A stretch of DNA of 64,000 bases from assembly GCA_032718475.1 (NCBI GenBank), contig JAUCBJ010001004.1, positions 1 to 64,000 on the forward strand, read 5' to 3'. Below the pieces are notes generated by a model. It had not been told where the DNA came from and did no database searches. It saw nothing but the letters and a program-made list of their open reading frames with translations. How positions within the stretch are numbered: the stretch's first letter is position 1; each line of letters starts with the position of its first letter. Position numbers and translations under genes: made by a program. Source of the DNA: Nemertoderma westbladi (taxonomy: Eukaryota > Animalia > Xenacoelomorpha). This document shows positions 8,251 to 38,813 of this stretch, piece after piece.

Positions 8251-8359
8251 GATTGTGTACCGGTAACTCGTTTAGGAAATAAAAATAAATAAATACTTTT
8301 ACGAAAATAATTAAAACTTTTCAGGAAAACAAAGAGACAATGATTGGGAATGTGGTGAA

Positions 8360-9497: not shown

Positions 9498-9511
9498 CAA
9501 GACCCTACTAC

Positions 9512-10279
9512 TTTGGTCCAAACGCTAAAATTGGGCTTGCCGAGCTACAATACCAAGCAACATACAGTAATATTACACTGCAAACTCAAATCTCACTGTC
9601 AATCGGGGTAGATGCAAAAGATGCCAAATTATATAGTTTATTTCCTGGTATGCATAGCTCTATTCAAGTGATTATTGATGATATAAATAAACTGTTTAAT
9701 TCTGAAGCGAAATATAGAGATTTCGAATTCATTTTTAATACAAATAATTCTAGAATTAAATTTAAATTTCCTAAAAAGTTGAAAAAAATACAATTAAGTC
9801 TACGTGGTGATTTAATACAAATTCTAGGCTTAAAACCGTTATTGGATCGGAATCATCCAGGTATTCCGAATTGGGATATATACAGTACCACTACAGTAGA
9901 TGAATTAAGCAATATAGAACAGCCGATATTAATTTTAAATTATAGCGGACCAAAAATTTCGGAAATTGGCATTTTAGATTTTCCAGCTCCCACGAATATA
10001 ACACGTAATAAAGACACTATCTTTATATATACAGATATTATTAAGAGCTCATTTGTTGGTGACGCTTTAGCACCGCTCTTAAGAACCTGCCCTTTAACGC
10101 AATTAAATCGAAAATATATTAATCACGAATACGAGAGCATTTGCTATTACCCGTTATTGAATAAAAAACTAAAAACAATCTTAATTACTTTACGTGACGG
10201 ACAAGGCGAATTAATTAATTTTAGCGGAGGTCGCACTGTTATAACACTTAAGTTAATACGGGGTGGCAGTGATGGATGA
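9512..10279 (+). pseudogene. Minor capsid (penton, single jelly-roll) paralog 1, 5'-truncated
   Basis: The frame is open upstream of Met9650 (FGPNAKIGLAELQYQATYSNI...FPGMHSSIQVIIDDIN) to the 9512 junction. C-terminal IFIYTDIIKSSFVGDALAPLLR...YYPL...ITLRDGQGELINFSGGRTVITL is the typical Polinton penton signature. The N-terminal LPSNS motif is absent. Confidence 0.8.
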
Positions 10280-11117
10280 ATTCTACGTAAGACTACCAAG
10301 TAACTCCTGTCCAATTGATTTTCCCCGCAATAGCGCTAGTAATTATCAGATCAATTTCCATGGCGCCTTACCTATAAACCCAAACGAAAACTGGGTGGTA
10401 GGTATAAAAAGTATATTTTACTTAGCTACGTTGCGGTCCATGTATAACAATGTAGAGAATGTTATTTTATTAAAAAAAGGAAAAAAAAATTTTGAGGATA
10501 CACTTCCATCCGGTTTGTTCTACAGTATCAATGACATTATAGATTATTTTAACACGGGGGCGTTGAAAGATAAATTACAAATAGTTGAAAATACTCAGCA
10601 AAATAGGTTGCAATTTATTTTAGGGAAAACTGTGCGAGAGTTATTTATAGGTCAACAATTAGCCTATTATTTTGGAATTACTGAAAATAATCTCGGAGCG
10701 AATTTAAATCCAAATTTTAAAATTATTTTGAAGACGAAAAATAATATAAAGGGTTATTTAATAAAGGTTATCGGAAATGGAGAAAAAGCTTACCAGATGG
10801 TATTTTTATGCCCTCAACCACCCAATTCTATTCCAGAACCTAAGTCGAACATGTACGTGACTACTAATATAATTGAAAATCAATATATTAATGACTTTGG
10901 TTTAGCTTTACTTCGTCGTGTTGCGATACCTGATGACGTGAAATATGGTAGCGTAATAAATAAAGAATTTGTCAAGGATACAATTCATTATATCCCTGTA
11001 AAAAAATCATATAAGATAACATACATTCATATTGAAATAACAGACAAAGAAGGAAAAGATTTGAATTTTGAATACGGGACAACATCTATTATATTACACT
11101 TTAAACGAATAAATTAA
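10272..11117 (+). CDS. Minor capsid (penton) paralog 2
   Basis: MDEFYVRLPSNS...FPRNSASNY...WVVGIKSI N-terminus and MYVTTNIIENQYINDFGLALLRRV...HYIPV...IEITDKEGKDLNFEYGTTSIILHFKR C-terminus. Confidence 0.85.
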   Translation: MDEFYVRLPSNSCPIDFPRNSASNYQINFHGALPINPNENWVVGIKSIFYLATLRSMYNNVENVILLKKGKKNFEDTLPSGLFYSINDIIDYFNTGALKDKLQIVENTQQNRLQFILGKTVRELFIGQQLAYYFGITENNLGANLNPNFKIILKTKNNIKGYLIKVIGNGEKAYQMVFLCPQPPNSIPEPKSNMYVTTNIIENQYINDFGLALLRRVAIPDDVKYGSVINKEFVKDTIHYIPVKKSYKITYIHIEITDKEGKDLNFEYGTTSIILHFKRIN

Positions 11118-11118
11118 A

Positions 11119-11679
11119 ATGGATTCTGATTTATTTCAAAGATACAGTAAACCTCAATATGGTGGTGCAGACTCGAATCTTGCTGTTTTTAAAGGTGGTA
11201 GAAGTACGAGAGGCTCGACGCAAGTTCCTGTTTTTCGAGGTGGTTCATATATTGACCCTTACGGTCAACAAATTGGCGCATTTGGTCCAAACTTAAAACA
11301 ACGTCGTTTTCAGCGTTATCCTAGAGGTATGAGGGCAAATCAACATGGAGAAGGTATATTTACAGACGCTTTATTGACATTGAAAAAATTTGGTAAGCCA
11401 TTAGCTAAAAAAGTTTTACAAAAAGCTTTACCATTTACCACAAAATTTATGAGACAACACGTAATACCAAAAGGTAAGCGGGTCTTACATCAGCAGGCTA
11501 ATACGGTTATTAATAAAGCATTAAATAAAATGAAACCGTCAACAAGGTCAGTTGTAGAAAAAGTTTATAGAGATTTAAAGCGACCCGCTAGACCAATGTC
11601 TATGAACATACATCATCGACGTAGTAAAAAGAGAAATATAAAAGGCAAACTGAAACACTGCGAAAAAAGTATTTTTTAA
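11119..11679 (+). CDS. Basic core/DNA-condensing protein (pVII/pX-like) with adenain cleavage-type motifs
   Basis: Arg/Lys-rich 186 aa between the penton and major capsid genes; QYGGA, QIGAFG and QHGEGIF motifs followed by an amphipathic helix. Confidence 0.65.
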   Translation: MDSDLFQRYSKPQYGGADSNLAVFKGGRSTRGSTQVPVFRGGSYIDPYGQQIGAFGPNLKQRRFQRYPRGMRANQHGEGIFTDALLTLKKFGKPLAKKVLQKALPFTTKFMRQHVIPKGKRVLHQQANTVINKALNKMKPSTRSVVEKVYRDLKRPARPMSMNIHHRRSKKRNIKGKLKHCEKSIF

Positions 11680-11681
11680 TA

Positions 11682-12941
11682 ATGTCAATTATTAAGGAAT
11701 TAGATTTATTTTCTACACAGCCAATACAGACTGAATTTAAAGCAAAGCATTATGAAACAATTTACCCCGTATCTAATCTCAGAAGTGAGTCTAGGGAAGT
11801 CACGTTCCTTGTACCGAGATCCAATGAATTCTATACGAAACTGCAAGATGCGTTATTAATTACAAAATGTACTGTACGGTGGGATAGACGACTTGAAAAT
11901 TCCCATATATATATGCTGAATTACCCCGCTGAAACTATGTGGAGTGATATTAAAATAGACCTTAATGAGAAGCAGGTTGAAAATAGCAATAACCATTATT
12001 TCTACAAGTCGTACTTATCCAATTTATTATTTACAACTTACGAGGATAAAAATGGGCTACTGGGTGCGGGTGGCTTTCATCAGCCTTTATCTGAGCACGG
12101 AAATGAAATTGATCCCGGCGCGCATCCTATTGGCGATGCCTTTAGTAAACAAATGCAATTTGTAAGTGGATTGACGATTGATTTTGATACTGAAAGCAAA
12201 ATAATACAACCCGGGTATGATTTAAGAATGCATTTTAGTAAAGTATCAAATTCGTTTATTTTTAAAATCACTCCAAACGCAAACGTGGTGACAAATCTTC
12301 GGCTAGAATTAGATGAAATAAAGATCCTAATCCCTAGAATGGAGGTTAATCCGGTAATAGAAAGCAGTCACCTAAAAGGTTTAGAGAGTTACGATATTGA
12401 ATATCAATTCCAAAAAAAGGAGGTTACAACATTTACTATTCCCGCTCAAACCACAAATTACACCCAAACAAACATATTTGATGGTAAAAAACCCAAATTA
12501 GTTATTATCGGCTTCATAACAAATAACGCTTATTCGGGATAATTAATTAGCAATCCCTTGAAATTTGAACATTTTAACCTTAGACGCGCGGAACTGATTG
12601 TAGACGGTCTTCCAGTAGGTGGTGTAATATACGAGCCTAATTTTACAGATGGAACATATATTTTTGAGTATACTCAATTAATGAAGAACATTAATATATA
12701 TATTAACGGTTATGGAGGTAATAATATAGACCATGAAACCTACTTAGGTAATTGCCCCATCCTATCCTGGGACTTAACCGCCGACGGCTATGTTAGAGAT
12801 CCGCAACCATCGATATATACTAACGGCCAATTAAAATTAAGATTTGCCGAACCGTTGGTTGAAACCATAAATGTAATCGTTTTTAATATTTATGATCAAT
12901 CATTAAGTTTAAATAGTAGGAAAGAAATACATATCGATTAA
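11682..12941 (+). pseudogene. Double jelly-roll major capsid protein (~419 aa) with one premature stop
   Basis: ELDLFSTQPIQT N-terminus and KPKLVIIGFITNNAYSG*LISNPLKFEHFNL motif. ORFs 11682-12542 and 12558-12941 are in the same frame, separated by TAA at 12540-12542. Confidence 0.88.
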
Positions 12942-12943
12942 GT

Positions 12944-13396
12944 ATGTTATCTACAGAGGACCTTGATATGTTTCCAGTGGGTGGTCACTATTTGGGTGCG
13001 TTTCCAGCTAATAAATTACCTAAATTAGATAATAATGAGCGAAGAGATTATGGGTTAATAGTAAATACCGATAAAGAGCATCTGCCCGGGATTCATTGGA
13101 TCGCAATATATATACGAGATAATGAGGCTGAATTATTTGATTCATTCGGATCAAAATATCCAAACAGATGCATCGAAAAATGGCTTGAGAAAAATTCCGC
13201 AAGATGGCGTACTACTCGCAAACAATTTCAAGACCCAAGGAGGACCACATGCGGTCTATACTGTCTTTATTACTTGGTAAATCGAATTCACACAAACTAT
13301 CCAATGAGTGCGTTTACAAATAATGTGGAAATAAATGAAATAATATTATATAAATGGCTTGTTAATTATTATAAAATAAACCAACAAGTGTTGTAA
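12944..13396 (+). CDS. Adenain-like cysteine maturation protease
   Basis: YLGAFPANKLP, IVNTD...PGIHWIA (catalytic His), ELFDSFG (Asp), QFQ...TCGLYCLYYL (oxyanion Gln, catalytic Cys). Confidence 0.93.
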   Translation: MLSTEDLDMFPVGGHYLGAFPANKLPKLDNNERRDYGLIVNTDKEHLPGIHWIAIYIRDNEAELFDSFGSKYPNRCIEKWLEKNSARWRTTRKQFQDPRRTTCGLYCLYYLVNRIHTNYPMSAFTNNVEINEIILYKWLVNYYKINQQVL

Positions 13397-13427
13397 TTAA
13401 TCATTTAGCTTTTGTTTATCAGATAAA

Positions 13428-14024
13428 ATGGATAATATTATTTTTGTTGATTTTCAATATTATAAGATAGACAATAAAGAGTATCCGGTAGTATTTAAAG
13501 AATTTGCTATATTCGATTCTAATTACACCAAAACTAATGTAAAGATGTTTTTAATTAAAGGCCCACCTATTATTAAGTTATCAGCTTTAGATGTAGCTCA
13601 CGTAAACAATTTACGAGACATGACTTCTCATTTGCCCTGGGACTACGGTGACATTTCGCAAGATGACTTTAAAAAATATATGAAGAGACATTTAAAATAT
13701 AAAAAAAATATACATGTATTTGGGTTGATGAAATGGGCAATATTAAACACCCAACTCGATGTTCTCGCGCCAAATTCGGTGGAGAAATTGGGAATATATA
13801 AGCAATATCATGATTATTTAACCCCCTGTCGCTTCCACGATCAATTTACTACAGTAGAAAATAAATGTGCGTTCCACTTAAACATTAGGGATAACTGTCT
13901 GCGATACTGCTCAGCAAAACGCGTTGGGGGGTATGAGATGCTACACTTTTTCATGAGAAAGCGTTTAACTGCGACTGATGATGATAAACAGAAAGAAATA
14001 ACTGCGGTGGAAGATGTACTGTAG
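13428..14024 (+). CDS. Polinton DEDD/DnaQ-like exonuclease-fold protein
   Basis: IFVDFQ...FKEFAI...HLPWDYGDI...IHVFGLMK...C..H...C pattern, resembling the small DEDD-derived proteins of invertebrate Polintons. Confidence 0.55.
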   Translation: MDNIIFVDFQYYKIDNKEYPVVFKEFAIFDSNYTKTNVKMFLIKGPPIIKLSALDVAHVNNLRDMTSHLPWDYGDISQDDFKKYMKRHLKYKKNIHVFGLMKWAILNTQLDVLAPNSVEKLGIYKQYHDYLTPCRFHDQFTTVENKCAFHLNIRDNCLRYCSAKRVGGYEMLHFFMRKRLTATDDDKQKEITAVEDVL

Positions 14025-15866: not shown

Positions 15867-17126
15867 TGTACGCGCTTTTGAAGACCTTTAGCAGTTTAAC
15901 CTGCCAAAATTTATATGTCTTTTGGTTTATAAATAGACTTTAGAAGTTGACAAATATTTAATACCAATAAACACAACATTAGCAGAAGCCAGCCTAGTGC
16001 GCGTCCATTCACCCGCTGGATATACCCGGGAGACTGGATTCTGAGGGCTTAGATTATTATTGCAGTGTAAGCTTACTGTATTATTCGATTGATCGTTAAT
16101 AAATAATTTCTGACTAATATTATTCACTTTCGGGAAATATTAACAGTTCCTTTAGGACGTGGCGCTCTATCTAGGTAAACAGAGATATGACTTATACTAA
16201 TCACAACGGTAAGTCGGTGAGGCTTATGATTCAAGTATGAGGCGCATTCTTTAGGAAATGCTTAGTTATCAGTCACAATCAGGCACACTACCGGTAACAC
16301 ACAATACTGCTCAATAATTTGCCGACCGTCAATGAATTTTATCATATATAAAGAGAACAGCAATGGACTCATGTAGTGCTTATCAAATAGCATTAAATTC
16401 ACTACAAACCACAATAATATAAGTCGCAATCGCTATATATAACCCGTCTCTCTAACCTGTAGTGTATCAAGAAAATTGGGAAATTTGGGTTCTTTATAAA
16501 TGTTCTCCAAATAATATTCAACCAAAACACAACAGTAAAAAGCATTAAGACGGTAGGTTAAGATATGAAATGACAATGTATATGCCGATTGAGTCGAGTT
16601 GATTGAGTTGAGTTGATAACAGTTATACGCTCTATAATTTAAGCCTACTAATGTTTCTTCTAAAGTATGAAAACGAATTGACTCTAGAGCCGGTGTTCCT
16701 GGCCTAGATAGAAACAACACAACAGTATCAAGAAAAAACAGTAAGACTGAACACTCCTAGTATGATCGGCCGAATATCTCCACATCGACAGAAAAAATCG
16801 CTCTGATTGGCTTAAGCTAAACAAAGAACCATGTGTCCAATGGCCGTTTCCATGTCAGCAACCAGCTGTTAGATGTCGTAATCTGAATCATCAAGGCTAA
16901 GCTGTGTAAAGGTATTTGGTGCATTGCGGGTTTTTTGCCTTACCATGTCCGCCAAAGCACGTATATAGAAGAATGACTTTTATGTCCGTTAAAACACCTA
17001 TAACGGTACCTTGCGGGCGAGGGGAATATATATATAGTTAGAGAGCCTTTTAGAGTATTCCAGCGCCTGGGGGTAAACTGGATTGCGAAGCAAAAGGGCC
17101 AGTTATATCCCACAGAAGCTTTTACA
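15867..17126 (-). repeat. 3' LTR of element A
   Basis: Near-identical to 47345-48604 (about 7 substitutions seen by eye). Preceded on the - strand by the purine tract GGGAGCGG (17127-17134). Confidence 0.96.
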
Positions 17127-17204: not shown

Positions 17205-18656
17205 TTAGTCTTTCTTGCGCGGACGGCGTTTACGCAGTTTTTTAAAGCTAGCCAGAGTCCTTTTCTCTTTGGGGCGAGCCACTTTACAAGGAGGGCTATA
17301 ACTCCTGGGTGAAGGGTGCAATATGATTGCATCAGAGGGTGTAGGATTATGGTCGGTGTATCCGCCAGTCGAAGTACCGGGTTGATTGACATCAACGTCA
17401 GGGGAGAGGGGTCTAACGGCTTTGAGAGCTCGTTTCAAGACAGCCGCTCTTACGGGTCCTTTACGAGTGGTCTGAACGAGGGCCGTGGGTGGACCATAGG
17501 CAGTTAGAAACCTCCTGGGTTTAATGGTTCTTTCCAACTCGCATTCGCGGGCTCGGTATTCGTAAGGCCGTCGATATACTTCCTGTAACTCGGGGTGTGA
17601 GTTAACAAATAAGTCTCCATAGTCTGGGTCCTGACGGATATAATTGATTAAGTTATAGGAATGAAGGTCGCTAGGATTAACACTCCTAAGAAATTTGCGT
17701 ACGAACTTGGTTGAAATACATTCTCCGACGCGCTTCAGTAGTTCGTAACTCGATATGCGTGATTTCTGTTCGACAGAAGCGGATAGGTAAGGATGGAACG
17801 CATAAACTCCTTCGTAAGCGCGTCCAGGATAATAGCGATGGCGCGAATCACAATGTAAATCAGCGTTCGCTTCCCAAGCTCTGATGTAACGTAGTGTGAT
17901 CATTTCATCTACGCTTTCCAAATCGCGATTAAAAGGGCAATCGAAACTGGCGTGTCCCTTTAGTTGACAATGGTGACATTGAGTCATAAATTGAGGGCAA
18001 ACCGCAAAAATGTGCAAGTTATTGAGTCTGCAATACGCGCAATAAATTTCCATCGCCGGTTGTTCGTGGAAATAGGAACAGCGGACGACGTTTGTGTCCA
18101 TGGGCGTAACATGGTCTCTCGATGCGCATAACCGACAACGTTGCCGAGAAACATAGTTGGCATGGCGATAATTGTACGCAGTGAGACACTGTGGACCTTG
18201 ATACCATTCTAGGATGTAATCGTTGTCGCTGTTCCGGGCGCGATAGGCTGAATCTCCTCAGATTCTAGGCATATTGGTTCGTCTTCCCAGTCTGTTACGA
18301 ATAGAATTTTCGTGATCTATTCTCGGTTTATCGTTACGACTCCGCTGGGTATAATATTTAAATAGAACCATTTCCCTTTCGGTGTCTACATCGTCCGTAT
18401 CATGTAAATCGATAGGATGGCAGGTAGTTAGGAAGTCCATATACGCACTATTACGATGCGTATAGCGAGCGGTGAATTTTCGATAGTCCAATTCACGCGT
18501 AAATTGCTCTTGGGACATCGGCGGTTCGATATAACGACCATCGTCCTCCGTAATGGTTGGATCGATTTCACCGCGTATCAAGCTATCCACAAATGCTTGT
18601 AAAGGTAGAGTATATCGCTCCCTGATACCAAGATCATCTTCTATCAACTCCGTCAT
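17205..18656 (-). pseudogene. Accessory 3' ORFs of element A (Zn-knuckle protein), internally deleted
   Basis: Homologous to B 36501-38735. About 0.8 kb is missing near 18290. Retains CAYCRLNNLHIFAVC, CHHCQLKGHASFDC and the basic tail. Confidence 0.85.
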
Positions 18657-23187: not shown

Positions 23188-23192
23188 ATATG

Positions 23193-24398
23193 TGTAAAAG
23201 CTTTTGTGGGATAACTGATTCGTTTGCCTTGTTGGCCAGTTCCCCCCCAGTCGCTAGAATACTCTCAAAAGGGATCTATAGCTAAAAATAGTGCAAGTTA
23301 CCAGCTTATTGGCTGATTTGTTGTACGCAGGCATCTGGGCTCTGTTTAATCGGCCAACAAGCCTAGGGAGGTTGCATCATAGCCTTGTTTTTGTATCTCC
23401 CAATAGAATTTGAGTTAGCCTTGATTTTGACCTATCACAGAGCTACTGAACTGAAATTTTCCTATCTCACTGCTCTTTCTCTGTGTTGAAAGGGAGCTTC
23501 GTGGAATAAGGGTAGTTGGTATCCTCGTATAGAGCAGTAGTCACGAGTTTTTCAAAGCCACGAAAGAACGGCTTTGTAGTGTTTTATGCTTTCTGCTTTT
23601 TAGCTCAACACTAGTAGGTTTAATTATAAGGACATATATCCTTTAACTGGCGACCGCATTTGACACACCGTACCACACGGCTTTTAATAACTGCTGAAAC
23701 TGCTAAAATTTACCTGCTCAATCAATACTGTGTACTGCTATTTGTTGTCGGTTATTCATTATATTGGTTGATGAATTATTATATTGGAATAACGAGAAAT
23801 AACCCCGACACCCAATATTCTTGATATACCGAAGGTAAGAGAGAAAGGTTACCAATAACGATTGTGACTTATGTTAAAGTGGTTTGAAGTGAATCTAATG
23901 TTATTTGATAGACCCTACATGAGTCAGTCTGTGTTCCTTTTATATGTGACTAAAATCAGTGAAGATTGGCAGATTAGTGTGCAGTATTGTGCAGCATTGT
24001 GTATGAGTGAGTCTGTTAAAGAAGCATTTCCTAAAGAATGCGCCATATATGTGAATTATAATTAAGCCATATCGTTGTGAGTAGTTTAAGTCATAACTCT
24101 GTTTATATAGATAAAGCGCCACGTCCTAAAGGAACTGTTAATATTCCCCGAAGGTGAATAATATTGTCAGAGATTATATAATACTGTCAGTCGAATAATA
24201 CATTAGGCTTACATAGCAATAAAATTAAACCGTCGAACCCAATCTCCCGGGAATATCCAGCGGGTGAATGATCGCGCACAGATTGGTTTCGACTAGTGTA
24301 GTGAATCAAATACTTGTCATAGGCTAAAAAGCGATTTAATATCTAGAAGACATCTTAATTTGGCGGGTTAAACTGCCAAAGGTCTGAAAGCGCGAACA
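23193..24398 (+). repeat. 5' LTR of element B
   Basis: Matches 38814-40019 with only 2 substitutions seen by eye. Confidence 0.97.
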
Positions 24399-24410
24399 TT
24401 AAAGGATATA
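24399..24410 (+). promoter_or_regulatory. Non-tRNA primer-binding site of B, complementary to LTR positions 23635-23646
   Basis: TTAAAGGATATA directly abuts the LTR and is the exact reverse complement of TATATCCTTTAA inside the LTR. It does not start with TGG. Confidence 0.7.
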
Positions 24411-24469
24411 GCTTCTTTATTGCAGTAAGCAATAAAGTTGAAAGTACCGGTCAACCGGTAAACCTGAAC

Positions 24470-25320
24470 GGTACATCTGTAGGTCAGTAGGCCCAACCGC
24501 CAGAACCGGTACTGCCGTAGGTCCGTAGGTCCAACTGCCAGAACCGGTACTTCTGTAGGTCCGTAGGCCTAGCTGTCCTAACCGGTACTTCCGTATAAGT
24601 ACACTAGTATTATTCGATTTGATTGTTGCATACCGGTAGGCTGTTAAGGGATTAGGGATTGATCACCCCTTATTCCTTTATATGGTTTACTTATTTCTGT
24701 CAAGTTTTATTTATTTGTAGGCCAGTATTGAACAGAAGGCGTGTAAACCTGATCAGATTGTACAGACGATTTGTAGGCTGAGCTGTTGTCTGATTGCTGT
24801 TAAGTCCGAACGAATTGCAGTGTGTGTAGATCACCTGTCCGATTAAGTACGGTTAGGAAGTAGGGGCAGCGAATGCTGTAAGGTAAACCCTCAACTAAAG
24901 AATAAGTCGTACTACTGGGTTAGAACGTATACTCCCTAATCATTTCGGAGTCTGCATGTCCTGTAGTTTATTTAGGCTTGAGAGTAGTCTGCCATCGTTT
25001 AGTCTGTACTTTGTTTGTGTAAGTCTGTACGGGTAGCGTATAATTTTATTTAGATAATTTGTAGGCTGGATAGTTGTCTGGCTGTTATTAGGTCTGAACG
25101 GATTGCAGTGTGTGTAGATCACTTGTCCGATTAAGTACGGTTAGGAAGTAGGGGCAGCGAACGCTGTAAGGTAAACCCCCAACTAAAGAATAAGTCGTAC
25201 TACTGGGTTAGAACGCATACTCCCTAATCATTTCGGAGTCTGCATGTCCTGTAGTTTGTTTAGGCTTGATAGTAGTCTGTCAGTGTTCGGTCTGCATTTT
25301 GTTTGAGTAGTTTGTACGCG
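24470..25320 (+). repeat. Leader repeats of B: short CCAGAACCGGTAC..GTAGG units and a 288-bp direct repeat
   Basis: GATTAAGTACGGTTAGG at 24841 and 25129; equivalent repeats in A at ~46470-46960 and ~47150-47290. Confidence 0.85.
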
Positions 25321-26653
25321 TAGCGTAATATTTATTATTCAGAGTTTATGCGATTATCCGCAACATTCATTCCCCAAGTTTGTTCCTACAGTAATTGTGT
25401 TTGTTATACATACCGCTATAGTTAAATTAACCCCGGTACTACACGGGCTGCTTGGCGTAGGTAAAGACTGGTGATTCTGTGCATCGGTCACTCCAGCAGA
25501 TGCCGTGGTTCTTTTAGCTGTTCAAGTATATTTAACTACTGATTATCTGTTGTACAAGTACTCGTACCTAATTTAGGGTTTAGTGTACAGTGCTTTCCGA
25601 AAGTAATTAGTGAAGACATTATATTTGTGTTGTAAAGTGGTTGATAGGCACGTTCGATTAGCTCTATTAACTTCTAGGTAGGAACACTCCGTGATACATA
25701 ACGTAGAACCTATAGCGATACGGCTATAGGTCGTCAGGCGGTGGTATTTTCCTATCTGGACAACGCAGTGTATTTACTACTACTTATTATTTCAAATACC
25801 GTAGTATCCTGTCCGTTGTAATAACCAGAATTCTAACCCTTTGTTAGGCTGGTTAGTAGACTTCTTGTAAAATTACCCTAAAAATTCGTATTTTGTGTTT
25901 TTTGTAAATTTTTGTGTTTATTTAGAGATTGTAATCTCAACCCGAATTGTACGTAATTTGTAGTATTAAGTAACTTAGGTAAATTAGTATTATTTGTTTT
26001 AGTGTCCTATAAGTAACACTTCACTGAAAGCGCACCGCTTTGTGTAGTGATTACTCCCCAGAAATAATAACATTTATTTCAAACATTGACTAAACCCATT
26101 CAAACGGGTATATATATATTATAAATCAAATCTAACAATTTATAAATAGTAGGCCTACCATATACCAATTAGGTCTCAATATCAGTTGGACTACTGCTTA
26201 AATAACGGTAATAAAGTAAGTTAAAGTAACCAAGTAACCCTAAAGTTCAGAAATTCAATTATTCTAAAATAATTGATATACCGGTATTTACGATAGGCCT
26301 ATTATAATATTTATATTTGTGCTGAAAGCATACCGGTATTCTGTAATTAATTCAGTTAATAATTATACTTATATATACACTACAAACTGTCAGCTGTACC
26401 GGTATTCCCGATAGGCCTATTATATATTTATATATATTTGTGCTAAAATTATACCGGTATTCGGTGATAAACCTAGTCTGTAATAATAGTTATATATACT
26501 ATAAGCATACCGGTATTCTAATATATTATATATATATCACGCTACACTGAGTAGCAGTACCGGTAATTAATTATTAGGCTAGCAGTTAATACTGAGTTAC
26601 TAGACTTGCTCAGACTGTAATACAGCAGTAGACATTCAACTGTATACATAGTC

Positions 26654-29600
26654 ATGTCTGATACTAAGCAGAACCTGTCAGACAGTATATTAGATGTAAC
26701 TATCTGCGACTCAGATAGAGACGTACAACCGTCTGGTCGTAAATTCTGTTCACCTCCCACTGTGAGGAAGGTCATCCCTCCAGTAGTAATAACAGAACCT
26801 AGGCTAGTCCAACATCGTAGGTCTATCATAGGCACTCGAGCTCAGGTCAAGCGGGACCAAGAAGCAGCGGAACAGTAACAACCCGCGAGTCAAGAACTTA
26901 TTCCTCAGCGGCCCAGCAGCTCCAGTAGTGAGGATACTGTAGAGCTGACACCCGAGCGCGGAGCAGAGATGACGGATGCGGTTTATACGGATCCCCTTCT
27001 CATCCTTCCAGCAGCCGTACTCACTAGGTTATTGATCGCGGTGGAAGAACACCAGATCGATTGGGCGAGAAGTCAACGGACAACTAGAGATAGTTACGCG
27101 GGATACACGAGTGAAGAACTGAAGTCCATTGTCGAGTCGCAATGGAACTTTCCCGGACCCGGACTCCCGTTTGATTTATCAGAAGCTGCCTGGGAAGACA
27201 TACACCGGATGGGAGTAGCCAAGGAAACCATCGATCCAGCTGTATGGAAGAGGTCCGCAGCCGGATACGCACAGGGATTCTTCAGCTCTATGGAGCGAGT
27301 AGAAAGACAACTGTTTAAACAACCTCAAGGACCTCAAGAGCAGGGACAGCTGCTTTATCAAGTTAGAGAAAGAGTTCTGCGAATTAGGCTAATCTTATCC
27401 GCCTTTGAGGAGGCTTCTAAAAGAAGACAAGACACGTCGTTGCAAGTTGCCGTAAAGACTTGGCTTCAAAGGGTGAGACGCCAGGTTCAAGGAGCAGCTC
27501 AGTGGAAAGCTCAGTTGGAGGAGCGCTCAACACATGGAGAATCGACGGACGCTACTTTTTCCCAAGTGGAAAGTGAAGCGACGGCAGAGAAACCGCATAA
27601 GAAGGATGCCATTGATATTTATCTGTCAGACTATCAGCGTTTTTTGGGAGATGAAGAGTTGAGGAGAAGGCTAGAGGGACTTAGCCCTAATAGCGAAGGA
27701 GCCAAACTTGTGTTAGATGCGATTGATGTGGATAGGTTAGCGGCGAACCAAGCTAAATTCGATGAACAACTCCGCATCGCTAGAGAAAAGGAAGAACAAG
27801 TAAGGAAAAAACGTATAGAAGATAGAAAGACAGCAGCAGCGGCAGTGGCAGCGGCAGAAGCGGAAAGAAAGGCAGCAGAGGCAGCGGCAGAGGCAAAAGC
27901 GGCAGCTGCAGCCGTAGAAGCGGAAAGGAAAGCGGCAGCGGCAGAAGCAAAAGTGGCAGCGGCAGCTGCAGCCGTAGAAGCGGAAAGGAAAGCGGCAGCG
28001 GCAGAAGCGGAAAGAAAGATAGCAGTGGCAGAAGCAGAACGGAGGGCATCTGAAGAGACAACCCAACTAGAGTTGGAAAATCTTCAAGAGAGGCAAGATA
28101 ACTTTAATAAACAGTTAACAGCTAGTAATATGCAGATGATGAATCGATCTACTCCCAAACGACAAGGTTATACATCATCTGAGGAAGGCGATACCACCGA
28201 CACTGAAGGCGGAGGAAATCGATCCCGCCTAAGCAGATGTAAAAGAACATTCCACCGTCAGAAATTGCCTGATTTGCCTCCAGCTGTTAGAAGGCAACTA
28301 AATAACACCAACTTAGAGAGTACAGAACCCACAGACCAAATAATTACAATAGAAAGACTCCCTACTATAGTAGATGAGCCTGAAATAAGTAGGCCTGTTC
28401 TTGAAATCACCCCTTCGGTAATAGATACACCTGTGCTCCCTGAAGCTACCTATAAATTCCCTCTAAATTCCCTCTGCATAGCACTAAGCTACCTGTGCCC
28501 CGTAGAACTGCCCAGGAGACAGTTCAGGTCCTGGACCCCGAGCGAAATATTCCAAATTTGTCGCCCGTTGTCCCTCGTCTGCCCGCTACGACGTTGGCGG
28601 ATCCCGTTTCGGCGGTTGATTGGGTAGACGAGAGACGGCGGGGGATGGATATTCTCCTAGGAGAGATGAAGGAGAATCGGATACGCTCTTCCCAACAGGT
28701 CCGAGAGTTGGAAGGGACTGTCCAACATTTAAAAGGAACAGTGAGGGAAAGTAAGTTAGAGTTGCAAGAAGTGCAGCAAAGTATCGCGCTAGAGCGCGAT
28801 AAATTAGTAAATACTCAAAGAGGTATACCACCACCCTCTGTAACAATGTGTCAACCTGTTAGGTCTGAAGTATCGCATGCGCAAGGTGTGGAGCCTACAC
28901 GCATATATACTGCTAGCGAAGTAGAAACTCCTATAGTGAACCCTATTAAGGGAAATTATAGACCTGTTGATAATGATATTCCCTATAGAACTGATCATAA
29001 TCCGAGAAATTTATATACCGATAATTCGATATTAAATAACACGATGGCCCAAGAAAGTTTTACGCGTCAAATGGCTAGAACCGAAGCCCGGCAAGCGGTA
29101 AAGGTGGGAGAGATCGTCAAGTTCAATGGAGATGAGATGAAATGGTTACCTTTTAATGAATATTACAAAGATAACATACAGAATTCTGTACTATCTAATG
29201 GAGAAAAACTTAGATACCTCATCGAGTGCTTGGAAGGATCTCCCAAATTAATGGCGTTAAAGTTTATTGGACATCCAGACGGATTAAGACAAGTTTGGGA
29301 TACACTAAACATCAGGTATGGTAATAGGAATAATATCGCTGGGTACTTATATGCAAAGTTAGTAGCGCCCCGAAAGTTTATTAGTAGTGGAATTATCGAG
29401 TTTTCCGATGAGATCCAGGAGATCTGCAGACAATTAGATTGGCTAGGTAAGTCTCATGAGTATCAGAACACTATGGTTATTAGAGCAGTGGCTTCTACTT
29501 TACCGAAAGGTGGAGTAGGTACACGCTGGGATAAGAAAGTGTTATATATGATGGAACAACAACGACGAGACCCTACCATGGCTGATCTCATGTCATTCCT

Positions 29601-32600
29601 AGATGGAGAAGTGAAATTACAGCTCCTGAAACTGTCCAGAGAGAAGACACCGGAAAACAAGGTAAGTGAAAAACCCGTCTCTAGGAGAAAGGTAACACCA
29701 GTATGTTATACCGATGACGGCGAAAGCCAAACTTCTCAAGGAGAAGATAGCGGGAAGGACACGGATAGATCTTATTACGTGAATAAAATGCCTAAAGATC
29801 AGGTAAGTAAATTCAAGTCTCGAACAAATGACAGGAGGGAACAGGTAAGAAAAACTCCTCCCACGTCTCCCAAGAGAATTCAGGTGAGAAAGCCCGAAGA
29901 AAAGGCAAGTGTACACAATGTGACTCAAAATAAGGTAAGTAACATCAAACCGAAATGTGCGCTGTGCGACGGGACCCACCATTTGAATAGGTGTGATGAA
30001 TTTCTAAAGAAATCATTAACAGAGAGACGCGAAGTCATGTGGGATAAGCGGTTATGTTATAATTGCCTCAGACAAGGACACCAACGGCGAACCTGTTTCT
30101 CTGACATAAGGTGTGCAAAGTGTGGTGCGAAACATCATATCTTGTTGCACGCTGAATTCGATCGAAATAGTCCGAATCAGGTAAGTGATTCCGAGCTACA
30201 TGTCCAATTCAGTGATGTGAACGACACTGATCAATCTGAGATGGAAGGATTCTATACAGACGAGTTCTCCGACGAAAACGAATCCTGTTACATGATAAAT
30301 ACCGCAGTGTATCGAGCACTCACATATGAAAAGGATCCAGATAACGACTTTACTCTAACTACTTCTGAGCGACAACCATCTTGGAAAGAGCCATCTTCCA
30401 ATGTAGGGATCCGAGAGTTTCCTGTGGTGCAAGTAAGGGTTCACGGACCTAAGAGGAGTTATGTAGTGAACGCCCTCCTGGACTCCGGCAGCACAGGAAC
30501 ATTCATCGATAAAGAGTTAGCCGAAGATATATTTGCTGGACAACCCAAGTTCCAAACTAAGCTCAACATGTCAGGCATTATGCAAGTTTGGAAATCTACA
30601 ATAACAGCTGATTATTATGTAGGAGCGTTGTCCACCCCCCAAGACGAACTAGGAGAACACAGCATAAGGTCAGTGAAAATGGTGGCTATAAAGAACTTCG
30701 CTACTACTCAAGCAGACCTTTATAATTGGGACGAGGATGAGAGCATCCAACATCTTAACATACCTCGATTCCAGACTGATTATCCTGGAGTGCAAATACT
30801 CATCGGCCAAAACGCGCATGAGGCGCTGGAGACGTTAGAGAAACGGCCTGCTCAACCGCAGCCCCTACAGACCTATGCGGTGAGAACTAGAGTAGGTTGG
30901 TACTTTACTGGCCCTTCCCGTAGAACACTCCGAGAAAGACTACCGCCAGAGAGCGTATGCCAGGTGAGTGAATGGGAAGATGATACCAGTGAGGGAGACA
31001 ACTCAACTGAGGGAATTCCATACTCCTCAGATAATGACGACGTTCACCAGCTTTTTGATGAGGAGAATACCATCGATCTCCTTAAGGAAAACGAGGCTTG
31101 GCAAAACCAAGTAAACTTATGTCAACTTCTCTATCCATCTGAACGAGAAGCTTACAACGACGAGTTAAATGACGTCATTGAGCGTTGCAATGCCAAGACT
31201 CGAGATGAACATGCTGTACGATTCTTTACGCAAGAGGCGGTAGAGCCCAATTCCTACGATAAAGCCTTGTCGGTGGAAGAGGAAAGGGCCAAGCAGATCC
31301 AAGAGACGACTACACGTTTCCTCAAAGATCAAGGTAGGTATGAAGTCGGTTTACCTTTTCGCAAGAGAGAACCGAAGTTCATCAATAACAGACCCCTGGC
31401 GGAAAAAAGAATCGCGCAACTCCATCGACGCCTTACAGCTAATTCTTCAGCTAAAGCAATGTATCAAACACAGCTGGAAAAATTTATTAGTAAGGGATAC
31501 GCGGAGAGGGTACCGGAAGAAACACCTGTGACTGAAAGAACGTATTATTTAACTCACCATTACGTTCCTAAACCCGGTAAACCAAATGAAGTGAGAGTAG
31601 TGTTTGATGGCTCCGCTCTTTACATGGGTCAATCCCTTAACTCTGAATTGTTACCCGGACCCAACTTGCTTCAATCTTTGTTGGGAATTCTTTTAAGATT
31701 GAGACAATATTCGATTGCTTTCGCCTCCGATATAGAAGGCATGTTCTTACAAGTCAAGGTGTTAGATAGGGATCGAGATAGTCTACGATTTCTGTGGTGG
31801 CCCGAAGGAGACCTCAACCAGAAACCGGTGGAGTACTGGATGACCATCCAGGCCTTTGGGATAATCTCAAGCCCTTCCAACGCCTGTTCGGTAGTGCGTA
31901 CTACTGCAGAGGACAACAGAGAGGCCTTCTCTAAGGAAGTGATCGACAACATCAAGAGAGACATATACATGGACGACAATCTGAAGTCCCTTCCATCAGT
32001 TGAGGAAGCCATTGAGGTCGCTAAGGGAACGGTAGAGTGCTTAAAAAGAGGTGGGTTTCGATTAACCAAATTCACCAGCAACTCCCGTGAGTTTCTGGAG
32101 TCGATCCCTGCGGAAGATCGCGGAGCGAAAGATCTCGATTTGATCAAAGATGATCTGCCAGAAACCAAGACACTCGGCTTGAAATGGGACACAGAGAGAG
32201 ATATCCTGTTTTTCCAACTAAAACAGCGAGATAATCCTGTTCGAACCAAACGGATTTGCTTAAGTATACTGAGCACTTATTTCGATCCATTGGGATTTAT
32301 TAGCCCAGTTATATTGATTGCTCGTAGTTTGGTACAACAAATGTGGCTTGAAAACCACTCATGGGACGATCCACTTAAGGGGGAATTATTGAAGCAGTGG
32401 ATGAAATGGGAAGATTCTCTGCCAGCTATCGAGGATTTTATAATTTCCCGTTCATATTTTGGTCATGTTCTCCCTACGTATTCCTATCAACTCCATGTGT
32501 TTGGAGACGCCAGCGATATGGGAATCGGTATAGTAGCCTACCTAAGAGTGGAAACTCCGGATGGAATCAAAGTCGCCTTGGTTACTTCTAAGGCATTAAT

Positions 32601-34851
32601 CAACAACAAGTTGAAAGTTCCTCGAGCGGAGTTAAAGGCGGCTCTATACGCTACAGCCATCGGCCGGAATGTAACCGAACAGATTGACTATACATTAGAG
32701 AAAACTGTCTATTGGACCGACGCTTTACTCGTGTTAGAGTATATAACCAATGAAGTCTGTCAGTTCAGCGTCTTCGTTACCAACAGGGTAGCCATCATAC
32801 TTAGTCGCACGACGATGGACCAATGGAGACATTGCCCCGGAACGATTAACCCAGCAGACATCGCGTCCCGAGGAGCGACTCCAAAGGAATTGGTAAATAC
32901 TCCCGAATGGTTAGGAGGACCCGACTTTCTCTACAGAGAAGAAGAAGAATGGCCTCCCCATCTCACAACAGCAGAGATCAGACAGGCCAAGGGAGCGGAG
33001 AAAGTTAAACCCAAAACTCGAGCGAGTAAATCGAAGTTGTTTAAACCTGCGGTTGATCTATCTGTATTATTTACTTCCGGAGAGGATGCTTTGGATCAGA
33101 AACCCACCGCCACGACGAAAGAAGTCTTGGAAATCCGTGACAAGGATTGGAAATCTAGAATACCAGATATCGCGCAAGGACTCTCACCTCTCTTGCAGAG
33201 AGCGATACGTCACTACAGTTCCTGGAATCGACTCTGTAAAGCTGTCACCTATTTAAAACGATGTTTTCATCATCGTTACTCCGGGACAAAGCCCAATAGT
33301 GATGATGCTCCATCAACATCTGCACGAGTCCATGTTGTTAAAGATCTTCCACAATACAAGGTATCCGACAGGTTTCTAAAGGAGAAGATCAGCTACCAGG
33401 AGCATGATGAAACCAACAAACAGATGCTGAGACTCCTACAATGCTATGAGGATTCCGATAAGTATTTCCTGTTGTTAAGAAATCCGCAGATGCGCTTAAG
33501 GGATCGCTTCTCTAGTACCATGATAGATGGGTTAATACGTGTTGGAGGTCGGCTCACCAACGCCCCGTTATCCTTTGACACTAAATTTCCCATACTCATT
33601 AGAAATCTTGATATACAAATCAAGATAATTGTGGATGTTCATAGCAAACTGTATCATGCTGGTAGAGAACGAGTTCTGAGCGAAATTCGAACTCGCTACT
33701 ATTTTTATAAACCTCGTAGGGCTCTGAACCAAGTTCTTAGGAATTGTATACCCTGTAGGAAAGCATTCAGTAGGCCTTTGACACAGCGAGAGGCAGAATT
33801 ACCTAGGGAAACAGTAAGCTTCTATGAACCACCCTTTACTAATACCGGTGTGGATTTATTTGGCCCTATTGAAGTATATCGTGCCCGGACTATAGTCAAG
33901 AGATGGTGTGTCATCTTCGTTTGTATGACTTGTAGAGCTATCCACCTCGATATGGTAAACGATCTCTCCACCAACAGCTTCGTGTTGAGTTTACGACGAC
34001 AGATCGCTCGCTTCGGAACCAGTAACACGATGAGATCGGATAAGGGAACGAACTTCATTGGCGCCAACAACGAAATTCAAGCTTACGTAAAGGACTGGAA
34101 CAAAAGACAGGTGGACGATCAGCTAAGGATAACAGCGTCTAGCTGGACCTTCAACGCCGCCGACGCCCCTTGGTGGGGAGGAAGTTGGGAGAGATTGATT
34201 AGGAGCGTGAAGACTGCGTTCCATTTTATTGTGCCCTGTCGCGCTTATCTCACCGACGAACTATTGCGGACGTTAATGGAGGAAATCGCCGCCTATCTCA
34301 ACGAAAGACCGCTTATGCCAGTCTCTTCAAATCCTGATTCCCTGGAAGCGCTAACACCCGCGCACTTTCTACTGAAGAAGCCCGTAGCCATGCTCCCACG
34401 ATCAGAGATCACCGACGGAGACGAGTACTGCCGTCGAACCTGGCAACTTATGCAGTTGCTATCCCGTCGTTTCGCTGACCATTTCGAGAAACATTACCTG
34501 CCCACTCTACAACTTCGAACTAAGTGGTTTGCGCAGCAAGAAAACGTCAGCGCTGGAGACATGGTGCTTATTGTGGACCCCGATCTCCCACGTAAGCGAT
34601 GGCAAACGGGACGTATCATCGAGACTTATATCTCGAGCGATGGTTTGGTGCGATCAGTAGAGCTCGTCGTCATGCGGCGGAACTTTAAGAAACCAGGGAT
34701 AGTCTTTGAGACTCAACAGCTCAATCGCCCAGTGGGACGTTTATGTTTACTGGAAAGAGACAGAGAGCTCTCCGGAAACTATGGAAGGCAAGAAACTCTT
34801 CCCACGACCACTTCCCTAATCCAACCGACATCTAGGGACTCCCCAACTTAA
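26654..34851 (+). pseudogene. gag-pol: Single gag-pol polyprotein of B with one nonsense codon (26876-26878) and one frameshift (~28455-28476); the 28495-34851 portion is open
   Basis: Ala/Glu coiled-coil N-terminus; KFNGDEMKWLPF and KLRYLIECLEG (BEL gag); three CCHC knuckles; ALLDSGS protease; RVVFDGS, SDIEGMFLQV and YMDD RT; RNase H; integrase DLFGP...SDKGTNF...WERL. The frameshift is an 11-nt tandem duplication of AAATTCCCTCT that is absent from A. Confidence 0.95.
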
Positions 34852-36500
34852 TATCGTTCGGAGTGGGCGTGTGACTCTATTATTTTATATTATTTTATTA
34901 TTTTTTACATTTATGTATGTATTACTATGTAATTTTATTATAATCGTTTTATTTAATTTAGTAGAATATTATTTAGCGATTATTTTGTAGAATAGTGCAA
35001 TATATTCGTGTTTATTACGTACGTAATTACTTATATTATATTTAGTGAGACGGCGAAGAAATAATTATTTTTCTCTTTCCTTACTGTCCGTATTATATTA
35101 TAAATACGTAACTACAGTAAGATGAAATGTCCGTACTTATTAAAGTACAATAAAGCCACTACTATATTTAAGTATTATTGGTAGGCAGAGTATTAGGAAT
35201 GCAAAGTTCAGATCCTCGTGTCTCGGCTAAACCAAGCTCTGGGTAGACCTTGGAAACGACTTGCCTCTTCACACTGACATTGCTTCGTGCGATATTGCTC
35301 TCATACCGTATATTAAATAATACATATAGTAGCGTGATGTCCCTTTAACAGTAGCGTATAACGCAAAATAAATCTGTTAAACCCTTTGACCATCTGTAAT
35401 TCTAGTCGATTAAGATATCGTGGCACCCACCGATATACTTGAAAGACAAATTATAGAATCAGTGGTTAACGTCCCCAGACAAGTTCTGGAATAAATCGGT
35501 GCCCATCTCAAATATTAATTAGTTAATATTTACAAATCAAATAAGTCAAAATCTGTAAAATTCAGATCCTTCAACAATTCTAGTCAATTAAGATATCGTA
35601 GCATTTACCGATATTCTTAAAGAGACAATTTTCTTAGAATTAAGGATCTTGTGTCCCTAGACATGTTCTAGAATCAAAATATGCCCATTTAATTATCAAA
35701 TAATAAAATTTCAGGGAATAAATTTAAATTCATGTCTTTTAATGAATTTAATAAATTGCCATTTTACGCGATTTATAACATTCCCAAAATTCCATTAATT
35801 AATAGATCAAGGGAGCGGAGATTTATATTATTATGCATATGAGTGTGCGAAAGTCTCCCAAACATAGTTAATAGCTGATAAAATTCGTAAAGTCATGTAT
35901 AAACAGGACATTGACTATTAAAGAATTCCTATTAAATAACATCCCAGATCTGTATGCATTGGAATTACCCTAATTCTACCGCTAGCTTTATATAATGTCA
36001 CCATAGCAACAACCACGCTAGAATTAGAATTGAGTTAAAAGAACAATAGAAAGCTTGTCCCATTGAATAGCATAGGGAATAAATAGCGCACTGCTAGTAT
36101 CCAAGGATACATAATAATACAGTGACATTCTGGAAGGCATTGACTAACGGACAAATGGCCCGAATGTGCGTAGTTGTGACCAGTTGTGTGGTATTTGTGA
36201 GTTTATAGGTGAATGTTACTGCTAAAGTGTGTTTACAGTAGCTAGTCGCAATCGTAAAGTAACCTAACTCTCCAAGGAATACCTGAAGTACATCTAAGCC
36301 TTTGGGACGGACAGTGGAGTGACTTGTGCCGGTTATCGTTGTCGTTGTACGGCTACGTCGTTGGCGAAAGTACAGCTACAGCGGTACATCGGCGCTGAGA
36401 ATCTCCTACTGTCCGGGGGCAAGGGAGAAATAGGCAGCGACGCCCGCTCGCCTAACGATATATAAACTCATTATAATATTGGTGAACTTGTATAGCAGAT

Positions 36501-36866
36501 ATGACTGAATTAATAGAAGATGATCTTGGTATCAGGGAGAGATATACTCTACCTTTACAAGCGTTTGTCGATAGCTTGATACGCGGCGACGCTGATCCAA
36601 CTACTACGGAGGACGATGGTCGTTATATCGAACCGCCAATGTCCCAGGAGCAACTTACGCGTGAATTGGATTATAGAAAGTTCACTGCTCGCTACACGCA
36701 TCGTAATGGTACGTATATGGACTTCTTGACCACTGGTCATCCTATTGATTTACACGATACGGACGATGTAGACACCGAAAGGGAAATGGTTTTATTTAAA
36801 TATCATGCCCAGCGGAGTCGAAACGATAAATCGAGAATAGAACACGAGAACCCTATTCGAAATTAA
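36501..36866 (+). CDS. Accessory ORF2 of B (acidic, unknown function)
   Basis: 121 aa, conserved in A (18258-18656), and preceded by TAGCAG|ATATG in both elements. Confidence 0.65.
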   Translation: MTELIEDDLGIRERYTLPLQAFVDSLIRGDADPTTTEDDGRYIEPPMSQEQLTRELDYRKFTARYTHRNGTYMDFLTTGHPIDLHDTDDVDTEREMVLFKYHAQRSRNDKSRIEHENPIRN

Positions 36867-36959
36867 CTCGAAGGATAGAACGTGGAAGAAGAATGCGAAA
36901 TAGTTTTTCCTCTGCTCTACCATCGCTGTCGGAGAACATATTAGGCATACAATGGGAAT

Positions 36960-38735
36960 ATGGAGAACATTCCATACCCTTTCGTTGATACTCAGCTGAT
37001 TGCTCCTTGGGCCGAAGGCCGAGGTTTCTTTCGCACTATGTATGCCAATACACCCAGCGGCATTACTAAAGTACAACGGACATCCATTGGACATCTTGCC
37101 TTTCAAGAATATGGTTGGAATTTCAAAGTTGGAAATCCTATAAATTACCAGCAAGTATATGGAGATCATTACTCTCGTTTATATTTTGATGGACCATTAA
37201 CTGCGCCTGGTGCCGTATATAGCTTTATGAGTGTTCCCCTTCGCCCTTCCTTAGCTATATACACGATCTTTGAAAATGCAGCACTTGCCGGTTGGCTAGC
37301 CGATGTGTGCAGTCGTACCATACGCGCTCATCCGTTAATACTTGGAACTAAACTCGCCAAGTTAGACGAACACAATAAGTTCATACGTTTCGAATGTTTC
37401 CGGCGCTTTCTGACTCCGTTCCGTAACGTCGATAGTCAGTTCAAGGATCGCGCGCTGACCAAGCTCAGTCTTAGAGACTCAGCTGCGGAGAAACTGAGTA
37501 GCGCTGGATTTGCCGTCTTTCAAGACGTTTGTATACAGAACCTACATTCATCCGTTATACAAAGAGCCCGAATATCTACAGGTTATTCTGTCGTGGAAAT
37601 ACAGACAGTGGGTCCACTTACGGAAACCGACGCACCCACTTCGTCTATGCAGCTGGAGGATGAACCAGTATGCTTGGAATCAGAAGCGATTCAACCTACG
37701 GCTTCTCGGAGCAGTGACAATGATTATGTCATAGAGTGGTATCAAGGTCCACAGCGTCTCACAGCGTACGATTATCGACACGCCAACTACGTTTCCCGAA
37801 AACGTTGTCGATTATGCGCATCGAGAGACCACTTCACTCCTCTAGACTCGAGCGTACCTTGTTCCTATTTCCTCGAACAACCGATGATGGAAATATATTG
37901 TGCTTATTGCCGGCTTAATAACTCTCATATATTTGCCGTCTGCCCACAATTTATGACTCAATGTCACTACTGCCAACTTAAAGGACACGAAAGTTACAAT
38001 TGTCCCTTTAATCGCGATTTAGAGAGCGTAGACGAGATGATCACCCTGCGATACATCCGAGCTTGGGAAGCGAACGCAGATTTACATTGCGAATCCAGAC
38101 ATCGCTATTACCCTGGACGAGCTTACGAGGGAGTTTACGCGTTCCATCCTTATCTATTCGCGTCGATTGAACAGAAAACACGCGTACCAAGTTACGAGTT
38201 AATAAAGCGTGTTGGTGAGTGTATTTCCACCAAGTTTGTCAGAAAATACCTTAGAAATGTCAACCCTAATGATATAACCACATATCACCTGATCAATTTT
38301 ATCCGTCAGGACCCTGAGTATGGCGACATTTTCGTGAACTCGCATCCTGAACTCCAGGAAGTATCTCGGCGCCCATATGAATATCGAACCCGAGAACGCG
38401 AGCTGGAGAGAACCATTAAACCGAGAAAGTTCCTCACCACTCACGGTCCACCCACCGCTAGTGTCCAGACGACCCGTCAAGGACCCGTAGGAGCTGCTGT
38501 CCTGAGACGCGCTCTAAAGGCCGTTAGATCTCACTCCACTGAGGTTGATATTAATCAACCAGGTACTTCGACTGGCGGGTATACCGATCGTAACCCTGCA
38601 CCTTCTGATGCAATTATATTGCACCCTTCGCCTAGGAGCTACAGCCCTCCTCGTAAAGTGGCTCGCCCCAAAGAGAAAAGGACTCTTGCTAGCCTTAAGA
38701 AACTGCGTAAACGCCGTCCGCGCAAGAAAGACTAA
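36960..38735 (+). CDS. Accessory ORF3 of B: 591 aa with Cys/His Zn-knuckle cluster and basic NLS-like tail; not an env
   Basis: CRLCASRDH, CAYCRLNNSHIFAVC, CHYCQLKGHESYNC (C-X2-C-X4-H-X4-C) and KKLRKRRPRKKD. No signal peptide or TM helix apparent. The C-terminal half is conserved in A with mostly synonymous changes. Confidence 0.8.
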   Translation: MENIPYPFVDTQLIAPWAEGRGFFRTMYANTPSGITKVQRTSIGHLAFQEYGWNFKVGNPINYQQVYGDHYSRLYFDGPLTAPGAVYSFMSVPLRPSLAIYTIFENAALAGWLADVCSRTIRAHPLILGTKLAKLDEHNKFIRFECFRRFLTPFRNVDSQFKDRALTKLSLRDSAAEKLSSAGFAVFQDVCIQNLHSSVIQRARISTGYSVVEIQTVGPLTETDAPTSSMQLEDEPVCLESEAIQPTASRSSDNDYVIEWYQGPQRLTAYDYRHANYVSRKRCRLCASRDHFTPLDSSVPCSYFLEQPMMEIYCAYCRLNNSHIFAVCPQFMTQCHYCQLKGHESYNCPFNRDLESVDEMITLRYIRAWEANADLHCESRHRYYPGRAYEGVYAFHPYLFASIEQKTRVPSYELIKRVGECISTKFVRKYLRNVNPNDITTYHLINFIRQDPEYGDIFVNSHPELQEVSRRPYEYRTRERELERTIKPRKFLTTHGPPTASVQTTRQGPVGAAVLRRALKAVRSHSTEVDINQPGTSTGGYTDRNPAPSDAIILHPSPRSYSPPRKVARPKEKRTLASLKKLRKRRPRKKD

Positions 38736-38813
38736 CTGTTTAGAGTATTTTTATATTTTAGAAACTGTGATTTTGTATATTTTATAGACTTAAATCCCAT
38801 TTTCTGGGAGCGG

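Follow-up and report, generated by a model that had tools for sequence, protein, structure and literature searches.

Two LTR retrotransposons of the BEL/Pao superfamily, here called A and B, carry a primer binding site (PBS) that is complementary to a segment of their own LTR. Both lie in the window, by which we mean the whole 64-kb stretch of DNA that was analysed. The feature is real, and it most likely works like the self-priming of Tf1, in BEL/Pao and not in Tf1/sushi elements. We put at about 0.72 the probability that A and B use their own RNA, in a Tf1-like manner, and not a tRNA as the primer of minus-strand DNA synthesis. Self-priming had been proposed in the first-pass annotation and holds as the likely reading, given the co-variation between A and B and the self-complementary PBSs of 14 out of 19 typed relatives, while the RNA start and the cleavage point are details that we infer from Tf1. 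The lineage is represented here by two full elements, namely A and B.

Self-comparison of the window yielded two LTR pairs. Element B spans 23193-40019 on the + strand and is nested within element A (48604-15867, - strand), whose pol is split by the insertion near residue 1137 as numbered in the B polyprotein. The long terminal repeats are as follows.

23193-24398, + strand: 5' LTR of B, TG...CA, 1206 nt, a direct repeat of 38814-40019
38814-40019, + strand: 3' LTR of B, containing the same candidate primer site
47345-48604, - strand: 5' LTR of A, 1260 nt
15867-17126, - strand: 3' LTR of A, pairing with the 5' LTR at 48604-47345

The LTR pairs have TG...CA ends and each element is flanked by a 5-bp target duplication of its own, that of B being 23188-23192, which equals 40020-40024. 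The two LTR copies show 2 differences in 1206 nt in B and 7 differences in 1260 nt in A. The LTRs are near-identical, and A and B are young elements. Their length is about 16-17 kb, extra open reading frames (ORFs) included. The coding and adjoining features of B are listed below.

26879-28627, + strand: Ala/Glu-rich ORF ahead of gag-pol, without a Pfam match
28456-34851, + strand: open gag-pol ORF of 2131 aa, recognised by Pfam PF03564, PF05380, PF17921 and PF18701 and by motifs
36945-38735, + strand: additional Cys/His-rich ORF past pol and ahead of the 3' LTR, without a Pfam match
38796-38813, + strand: polypurine-tract region, identical in A

The gag-pol ORF of B comprises DUF1759, Cys-His boxes, a protease DSG, a reverse transcriptase (RT) with YMDD, a putative RNase H recognised by its motifs in the sequence, and an integrase. 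The Pao-type Gag-Pol domains, the order PR-RT-RH-IN and the nearest proteins, which are BEL/Pao, all correspond to Belpaoviridae. A Ty3/gypsy chromovirus Pol, which characterizes the Tf1/sushi clade, is absent from A and B. Among the matches listed for B, all homologues (at least 120) carry PF05380 and the best protein identity is 42-45% over RT-RH; A and B therefore represent a divergent BEL/Pao lineage. Their membership is based on the predicted Pol and not on the type of PBS.

Several other features of the window were noted alongside. The Ala/Glu-rich ORF overlaps gag-pol in a different frame. The leader of B on the 3' side of the PBS (24440-26900, about 2.5 kb) contains repeats of 38 nt and 288 nt. 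A Cys/His-rich ORF without a Pfam match likewise lies between pol and the 3' LTR in A (17205-18257), and the top Atlas score for this type of ORF (0.78, DUF8363) is a weak lead. A itself sits within a Polinton/adintovirus-like element (6538-14024 and 48855-54500) with an adenovirus-type protease (PF00770) at 12920-13396 and ORFs labelled by eye as polymerase- and capsid-like. A third BEL/Pao fragment (55402-57474) is 5'-truncated and therefore has no PBS to compare; it is followed downstream by an ORF (59288-60043) that resembles a 3'-5' exonuclease by eye and has no Pfam match, and by its probable 3' LTR from about 61593.

The complementarity concerns two short segments in each element.

24399-24410, + strand: PBS of B, flush with the LTR and not tRNA-type
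23635-23646, + strand: candidate self-primer of B, exact complement of 24399-24410, with the homologous 11-mer at 23636-23646
47334-47344, - strand: PBS of A, flush with the LTR and near-palindromic
48094-48104, - strand: candidate self-primer of A, 11 nt, exact complement of 47344-47334

All four strings were confirmed at these coordinates as the exact complements that had been claimed, and Watson-Crick extension beyond them is impossible. The PBS directly abuts the LTR in both elements without a spacer, as had also been stated, because the second copy of each LTR and the 5-bp target duplications pin down where the LTRs end. The reported lack of a tRNA PBS starting with TGG was borne out as well, TGG being absent from the first 60 nt past the 5' LTR in A and B; within these 60 nt there is thus no PBS of the ICTV type, i.e., a complement of the 3' end of tRNA-Arg or tRNA-Gly. 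The published sequence criterion for self-priming, as given in the accessible part of PMC6317226, is a complement of at least 10 nt in the element's own 5' LTR, starting 0-5 nt from the LTR. B has 12 nt and A has 11 nt, each at offset 0.

Such a site occurs in 8 of 20000 dinucleotide shuffles of the LTR for B and in 25 of 20000 for A (rates of 4e-4 and 1.3e-3), and among 17,934 control positions in the window 0.11% reach at least 12 nt and 0.17% at least 11 nt. A chance match, or a side effect like a dimerisation palindrome, would be favoured by the AT-rich sequences and by the nearly palindromic PBS of A. Yet the PBS of B is not palindromic, the sites occupy the same position in A and B, and all four differences between the two elements are compensated (4/4). 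The shuffles and the co-variation largely refute this explanation, which we consider extremely improbable.

The co-variation is found in a homologous duplex of 11 columns, in which 23636-23646 pairs with 24409-24399 in B and 48104-48094 with 47334-47344 in A. Both 11-mers begin 24 nt past a shared TAGTAGG and are each preceded by a T, so the claim that they lie at the same homologous position is correct. The further claim that both sides changed together also stands: four of the 11 pairs are altered on both sides, seven are unchanged and none is broken. As a refinement, the 12th pair of B (23635:24410) has no counterpart in A. Since the PBSs of A and B have 7 of 11 letters in common, they are diverged homologues and not unrelated sequences. 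Around the site the two LTRs align poorly, while the flanks of the PBS are almost identical. Pairing across the elements is short, with at most 6 nt for the PBS of A in the LTR of B and at most 5 nt for the PBS of B in the LTR of A.

The same pattern bears on whether a host RNA primes these elements. The primer could be a piece of tRNA or some other small RNA of the host, in which case the LTR site would be a regulatory mimic, keeping the PBS blocked up to packaging. Half-tRNA priming is known in Copia lineages according to the accessible part of PMC6317226, and the search for tRNAs covered the 64 kb of the window, in which no tRNA or Rfam match is present. This explanation nevertheless needs a pair of host RNAs with differences at 4 of 11 places, every one of them mirrored in the LTR, and it has to deal with the many different PBS sequences of the relatives, each matched by its own LTR. 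We regard it as quite unlikely.

Under self-priming, the genomic RNA would start at the site or a few bases before it, at about 23636 in B and 48104 in A. Its first 11 nt would fold back over about 750 nt to reach the PBS, on either side of which there is a conserved hairpin, and the RNase H of the element would cut past the 11th base, leaving a free 3'-OH that points at the terminal CA. RT would extend this primer through U5 and R, and primer removal would set the LTR end, with no spacer. In retroelements, the primer is generally copied into the PBS during plus-strand synthesis. Site and PBS could consequently drift together, and this copying would account for their joint change. In most of the relatives sampled the logic may be the same, with a primer that would exist only after splicing of an LTR intron. 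The elements of sequence and structure around site and PBS are the following.

23612-23628, + strand: motif TAGTAGG...AATTATA shared by A and B in the LTR alignment, upstream of the site, with a weak TATA-like box from 23625
23835-23840, + strand: possible splice donor in the LTR by eye, GTAAGA in B and GTTAGA in A
24269-24277, + strand: possible partner of the last nine LTR bases (24390-24398), forming a duplex that adjoins the PBS, with pairing in B and A
24359-24380, + strand: 8-bp hairpin close to the LTR end, conserved in both elements
24415-24437, + strand: 9-bp hairpin directly past the PBS, identical in A

In the hairpin at 24359-24380, six pairs are invariant, two show one-sided changes via G-U and none is broken. 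Of the nine positions in the duplex of 24269-24277 with 24390-24398, eight pair in B and seven in A, one change being two-sided; the energy of this duplex is not above that of shuffles (88/1000 and 873/1000). A downstream complement of the kind seen in the Tf1 'pretzel' measures 9 nt (50/1000) and 10 nt (7/1000) and competes with the local hairpin.

When the RNA is made to start at the site, the helix appears in the predicted best fold of B with 11 of 12 pairs (mean probability 0.93) and in that of A with 10 of 11 pairs (0.90). For A, the predicted best fold has the helix with two 3' cut points and loses it at 15 of 15 starts with a third. Shuffled interiors also form the modelled helix (25/30 and 22/30), so that folding was rejected as support for self-priming; together with the shift of the A result with the 3' cut point, this means that it offers no independent support. 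The primer-PBS duplex is predicted to be weak, at -11.6 and -10.1 kcal/mol over a span of about 750 nt. Separately, a local hairpin (23629-23644) is predicted in B between the site and the bases right ahead of it, which would mask the 3' LTR copy and not the 5' copy of an RNA starting at the site.

The main rival to self-priming concerns the shared motif, which is a candidate promoter or RNA element. It might be a TATA promoter from which the RNA starts about 30 nt past the motif, so that the site falls in U3. The TATA-like letters at 23625 hold a conserved position in A and B, and B has no TATA-like box 25-35 nt upstream of the site. Only about 10 nt separate the box from the site, and if it were a real TATA, the RNA would begin about 20 nt beyond the site. 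Long-range 5'-3' pairing near the PBS is a feature of Ty1 and Ty3 and can also be listed in favour of a promoter. However, the box departs from TATAWAWR by 2 mismatches in B and, at the same place in A, by 3; with no TGG, this explanation leaves no primer, and the exact end of the pairing at the LTR boundary in A and B as well as the splice-junction matches of the relatives go unexplained. We judge it unlikely.

Contigs from X1 touch on the same region. X1 is one public run, unphased and only guessed to be RNA, which cannot show transcript starts. Its contigs match B across 23608-23648, diverging before 23608 in two contigs and after 23648 in one. One inserted base is listed behind 23627 and no change is listed within the site; the inserted A improves the TATA-like box, in line with a promoter. 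No difference from B is present in the contig spanning 24356-24438. The U3 of at least one LTR seems to be a different one, to judge from a joint that connects 38827 to 23608, and in this one unphased run the contig sequences suggest that motif and site form a conserved island. The X1 contigs leave 23653-23776 uncovered, and the joints listed for the run include no splice joint, at the possible donor at 23835-23840 or elsewhere; neither was counted as evidence. Elsewhere in the LTR, a block kept in A and B (24118-24148) has an X1 contig depth of 544 vs about 40-100 nearby and is therefore common to many more sequences; it has no Rfam match.

The relatives provide the broader context for self-priming. 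Scans of metagenome and genome contigs returned 95 BEL/Pao loci at 30-45% identity. In 23 of these the repeat ends inside both copies, and the 19 with a CA end, at roughly 40% protein identity, were kept for typing (L029, L080, L087 and L092 were left out for want of a CA end at the boundary). The 14 typed relatives with a PBS complementary to their own LTR comprise 13 that match over a GT-AG intron and one with a contiguous match, with differing letters. Three of the 19 have a TGG-type (tRNA-type) PBS, where the self match is never above 4 nt, and two (L051 and L081) have a PBS that is neither tRNA-type nor self-complementary. In ten loci, of which L001 and L004 represent one family, the PBS matches the exon-exon junction of the intron in the own LTR over 10-15 nt, with 0/200 shuffles each. 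The match is 11 nt for L082 and L084 (2/200 shuffles) and for L008 when the 3' LTR is used, and the contiguous match of L083 is also 11 nt (0/200 shuffles). L082 and L084 share a homologous donor, and where the three final bases of the exon before it differ, the PBS differs in step.

Blind scanning of 18 loci, including L039 and L081 from the 19-locus set, gave further splice matches in L013, L019, L021, L028, L047 and L087 (0/40 each); L021 and L028 belong to the family of L020, and L013 to that of L008. L074 has a contiguous match (0/40), whereas that of L057 is weak (10 nt, 4/40) and is labelled contiguous in the trees. Seven of the 18 loci (L006, L022, L029, L035, L036, L075 and L092) gave no match. 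Not counted were a 12-nt match of L027 at an implausible LTR length, a second match of L087 and a match of L081 whose end conflicts with the known LTR of that locus. The loci with a splice-junction PBS are listed in two parts. In the viral contig collection, two protein scans returned no relative, and the hairpin past the PBS was unmatched.

First part: L001, L004, L005, L008, L013, L014, L015, L019, L020, L021
Second part: L025, L028, L039, L040, L047, L082, L084, L087, L088

In the splice types, the match begins 0-4 nt past the LTR and is not always flush. Only 3-10 paired bases lie ahead of the donor, and in 18 relatives TATA-like boxes are not enriched ahead of the match start (3 with at most 1 mismatch), which is why their primers probably carry unpaired 5' letters. 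A splice-built primer was also considered for A and B and rejected, as their match is contiguous and the best spliced match is 6 nt in one and none in the other. The probable unpaired letters lend some weight to a much longer self-primer, for which the RNA of A and B would start at a distant upstream point of the LTR and pair through no more than its 3' 11 nt. A pyrimidine-rich TTTAG stands ahead of the motif in both elements, and a splice to this acceptor-like sequence, about 32 nt before the site, is possible. Against this, the predicted fold of B drops the helix once the start moves at least 15 nt upstream, which is a weak argument, and a conserved upstream donor is not seen by eye in the LTR alignment of A and B. 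We hold so long a primer to be very unlikely.

A separate origin of self-priming in the A/B lineage, as put forward in the first-pass annotation, is not supported as stated, since the trait is widespread in the relatives sampled and the trees are undecided. In a FastTree analysis of 90 of the 95 loci with 28 proteins, A/B forms a long branch that falls outside a group containing both splice and TGG types. Under a mixture model with 30 rows, B joins the self-complementary rows (SH-aLRT 95), among which three rows that are untyped or unmatched also fall. A careful tree of 24 rows has B inside the self-complementary group at 77/83, which is not firm, and the AU test does not reject a position of B outside this group (p 0.35). 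Contiguous types occupy four places in the trees. From these sequences, one origin of the self-complementary PBS in BEL/Pao is possible. Tentatively, and at somewhat less than even odds, a large aquatic-animal branch of BEL/Pao may have dropped tRNA priming once; most of its members would splice an LTR intron to build the self-primer, and the contiguous primers (A, B, L083 and L074) would derive from intron loss or be older.

If self-priming is true for A and B, it reaches a third LTR superfamily, and LTR finders that require a tRNA PBS will miss such elements or place their bounds wrongly. If LTR introns are spliced to make the self-primer, replication is tied to host splicing. Silencing by tRNA fragments targets the tRNA PBS, and a self-priming branch would remove this target. 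A and B constitute a natural compensatory pair, which makes the self-priming claim directly testable.

In the literature searched, to which Repbase reports, most subscription journals and supplements did not belong, no report of BEL/Pao self-priming was found. The accessible parts of PMC3601003, PMC5443660 and PMC13524379 do not link self-priming to BEL/Pao, and a term search of four BEL/Pao surveys (PMC3118150, PMC554778, PMC6238403 and PMC8556966) found neither PBS nor tRNA. The ICTV profile gives Belpaoviridae a genome of 4.2-10 kb and a PBS of 18 nt to which tRNA-Arg or tRNA-Gly of the host binds, and describes their replication as poorly understood (PMC8742986). Like Belpaoviridae (Semotivirus), A and B have LTRs, a 5-bp target duplication, the order PR-RT-RH-IN and Pao-type Pfam domains; unlike the ICTV description, they have no tRNA-type PBS, are about 16-17 kb long and carry extra ORFs. 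In print, self-priming is not confined to Ty3/gypsy, as the first-pass annotation might suggest, for the accessible part of PMC6317226 records it as predicted for Tcn1 (Ty3/gypsy) and, in Ty1/copia, for TAR/Houba/Osr-1. A and B are picked out by the same sequence criterion as these elements, all of them predictions, but Tcn1 and TAR/Houba/Osr-1 are plant and fungal elements of other superfamilies.

The closest comparison is with the Tf1/sushi group. In the accessible part of PMC7175516, the first 11 RNA bases of Tf1 form the complement of the PBS, with RNase H cutting between bases 11 and 12, and a PBS complementary to the own LTR is recorded, in that of PMC4600332, for Tf1/Tf2 of S. pombe, Tj1, Tosmo1-3 and Tcry1. 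The Tf1 'pretzel' consists of three duplexes around the PBS (bioRxiv 10.1101/2022.12.06.519325, accessible part); such a three-duplex structure is not clearly present in A and B, and their RNA start is a prediction by analogy. Like Tf1/sushi elements, A and B have an 11-bp duplex at the LTR boundary. Unlike them, they belong to BEL/Pao, have about 750 nt between site and PBS, and have relatives that build the primer over an intron.
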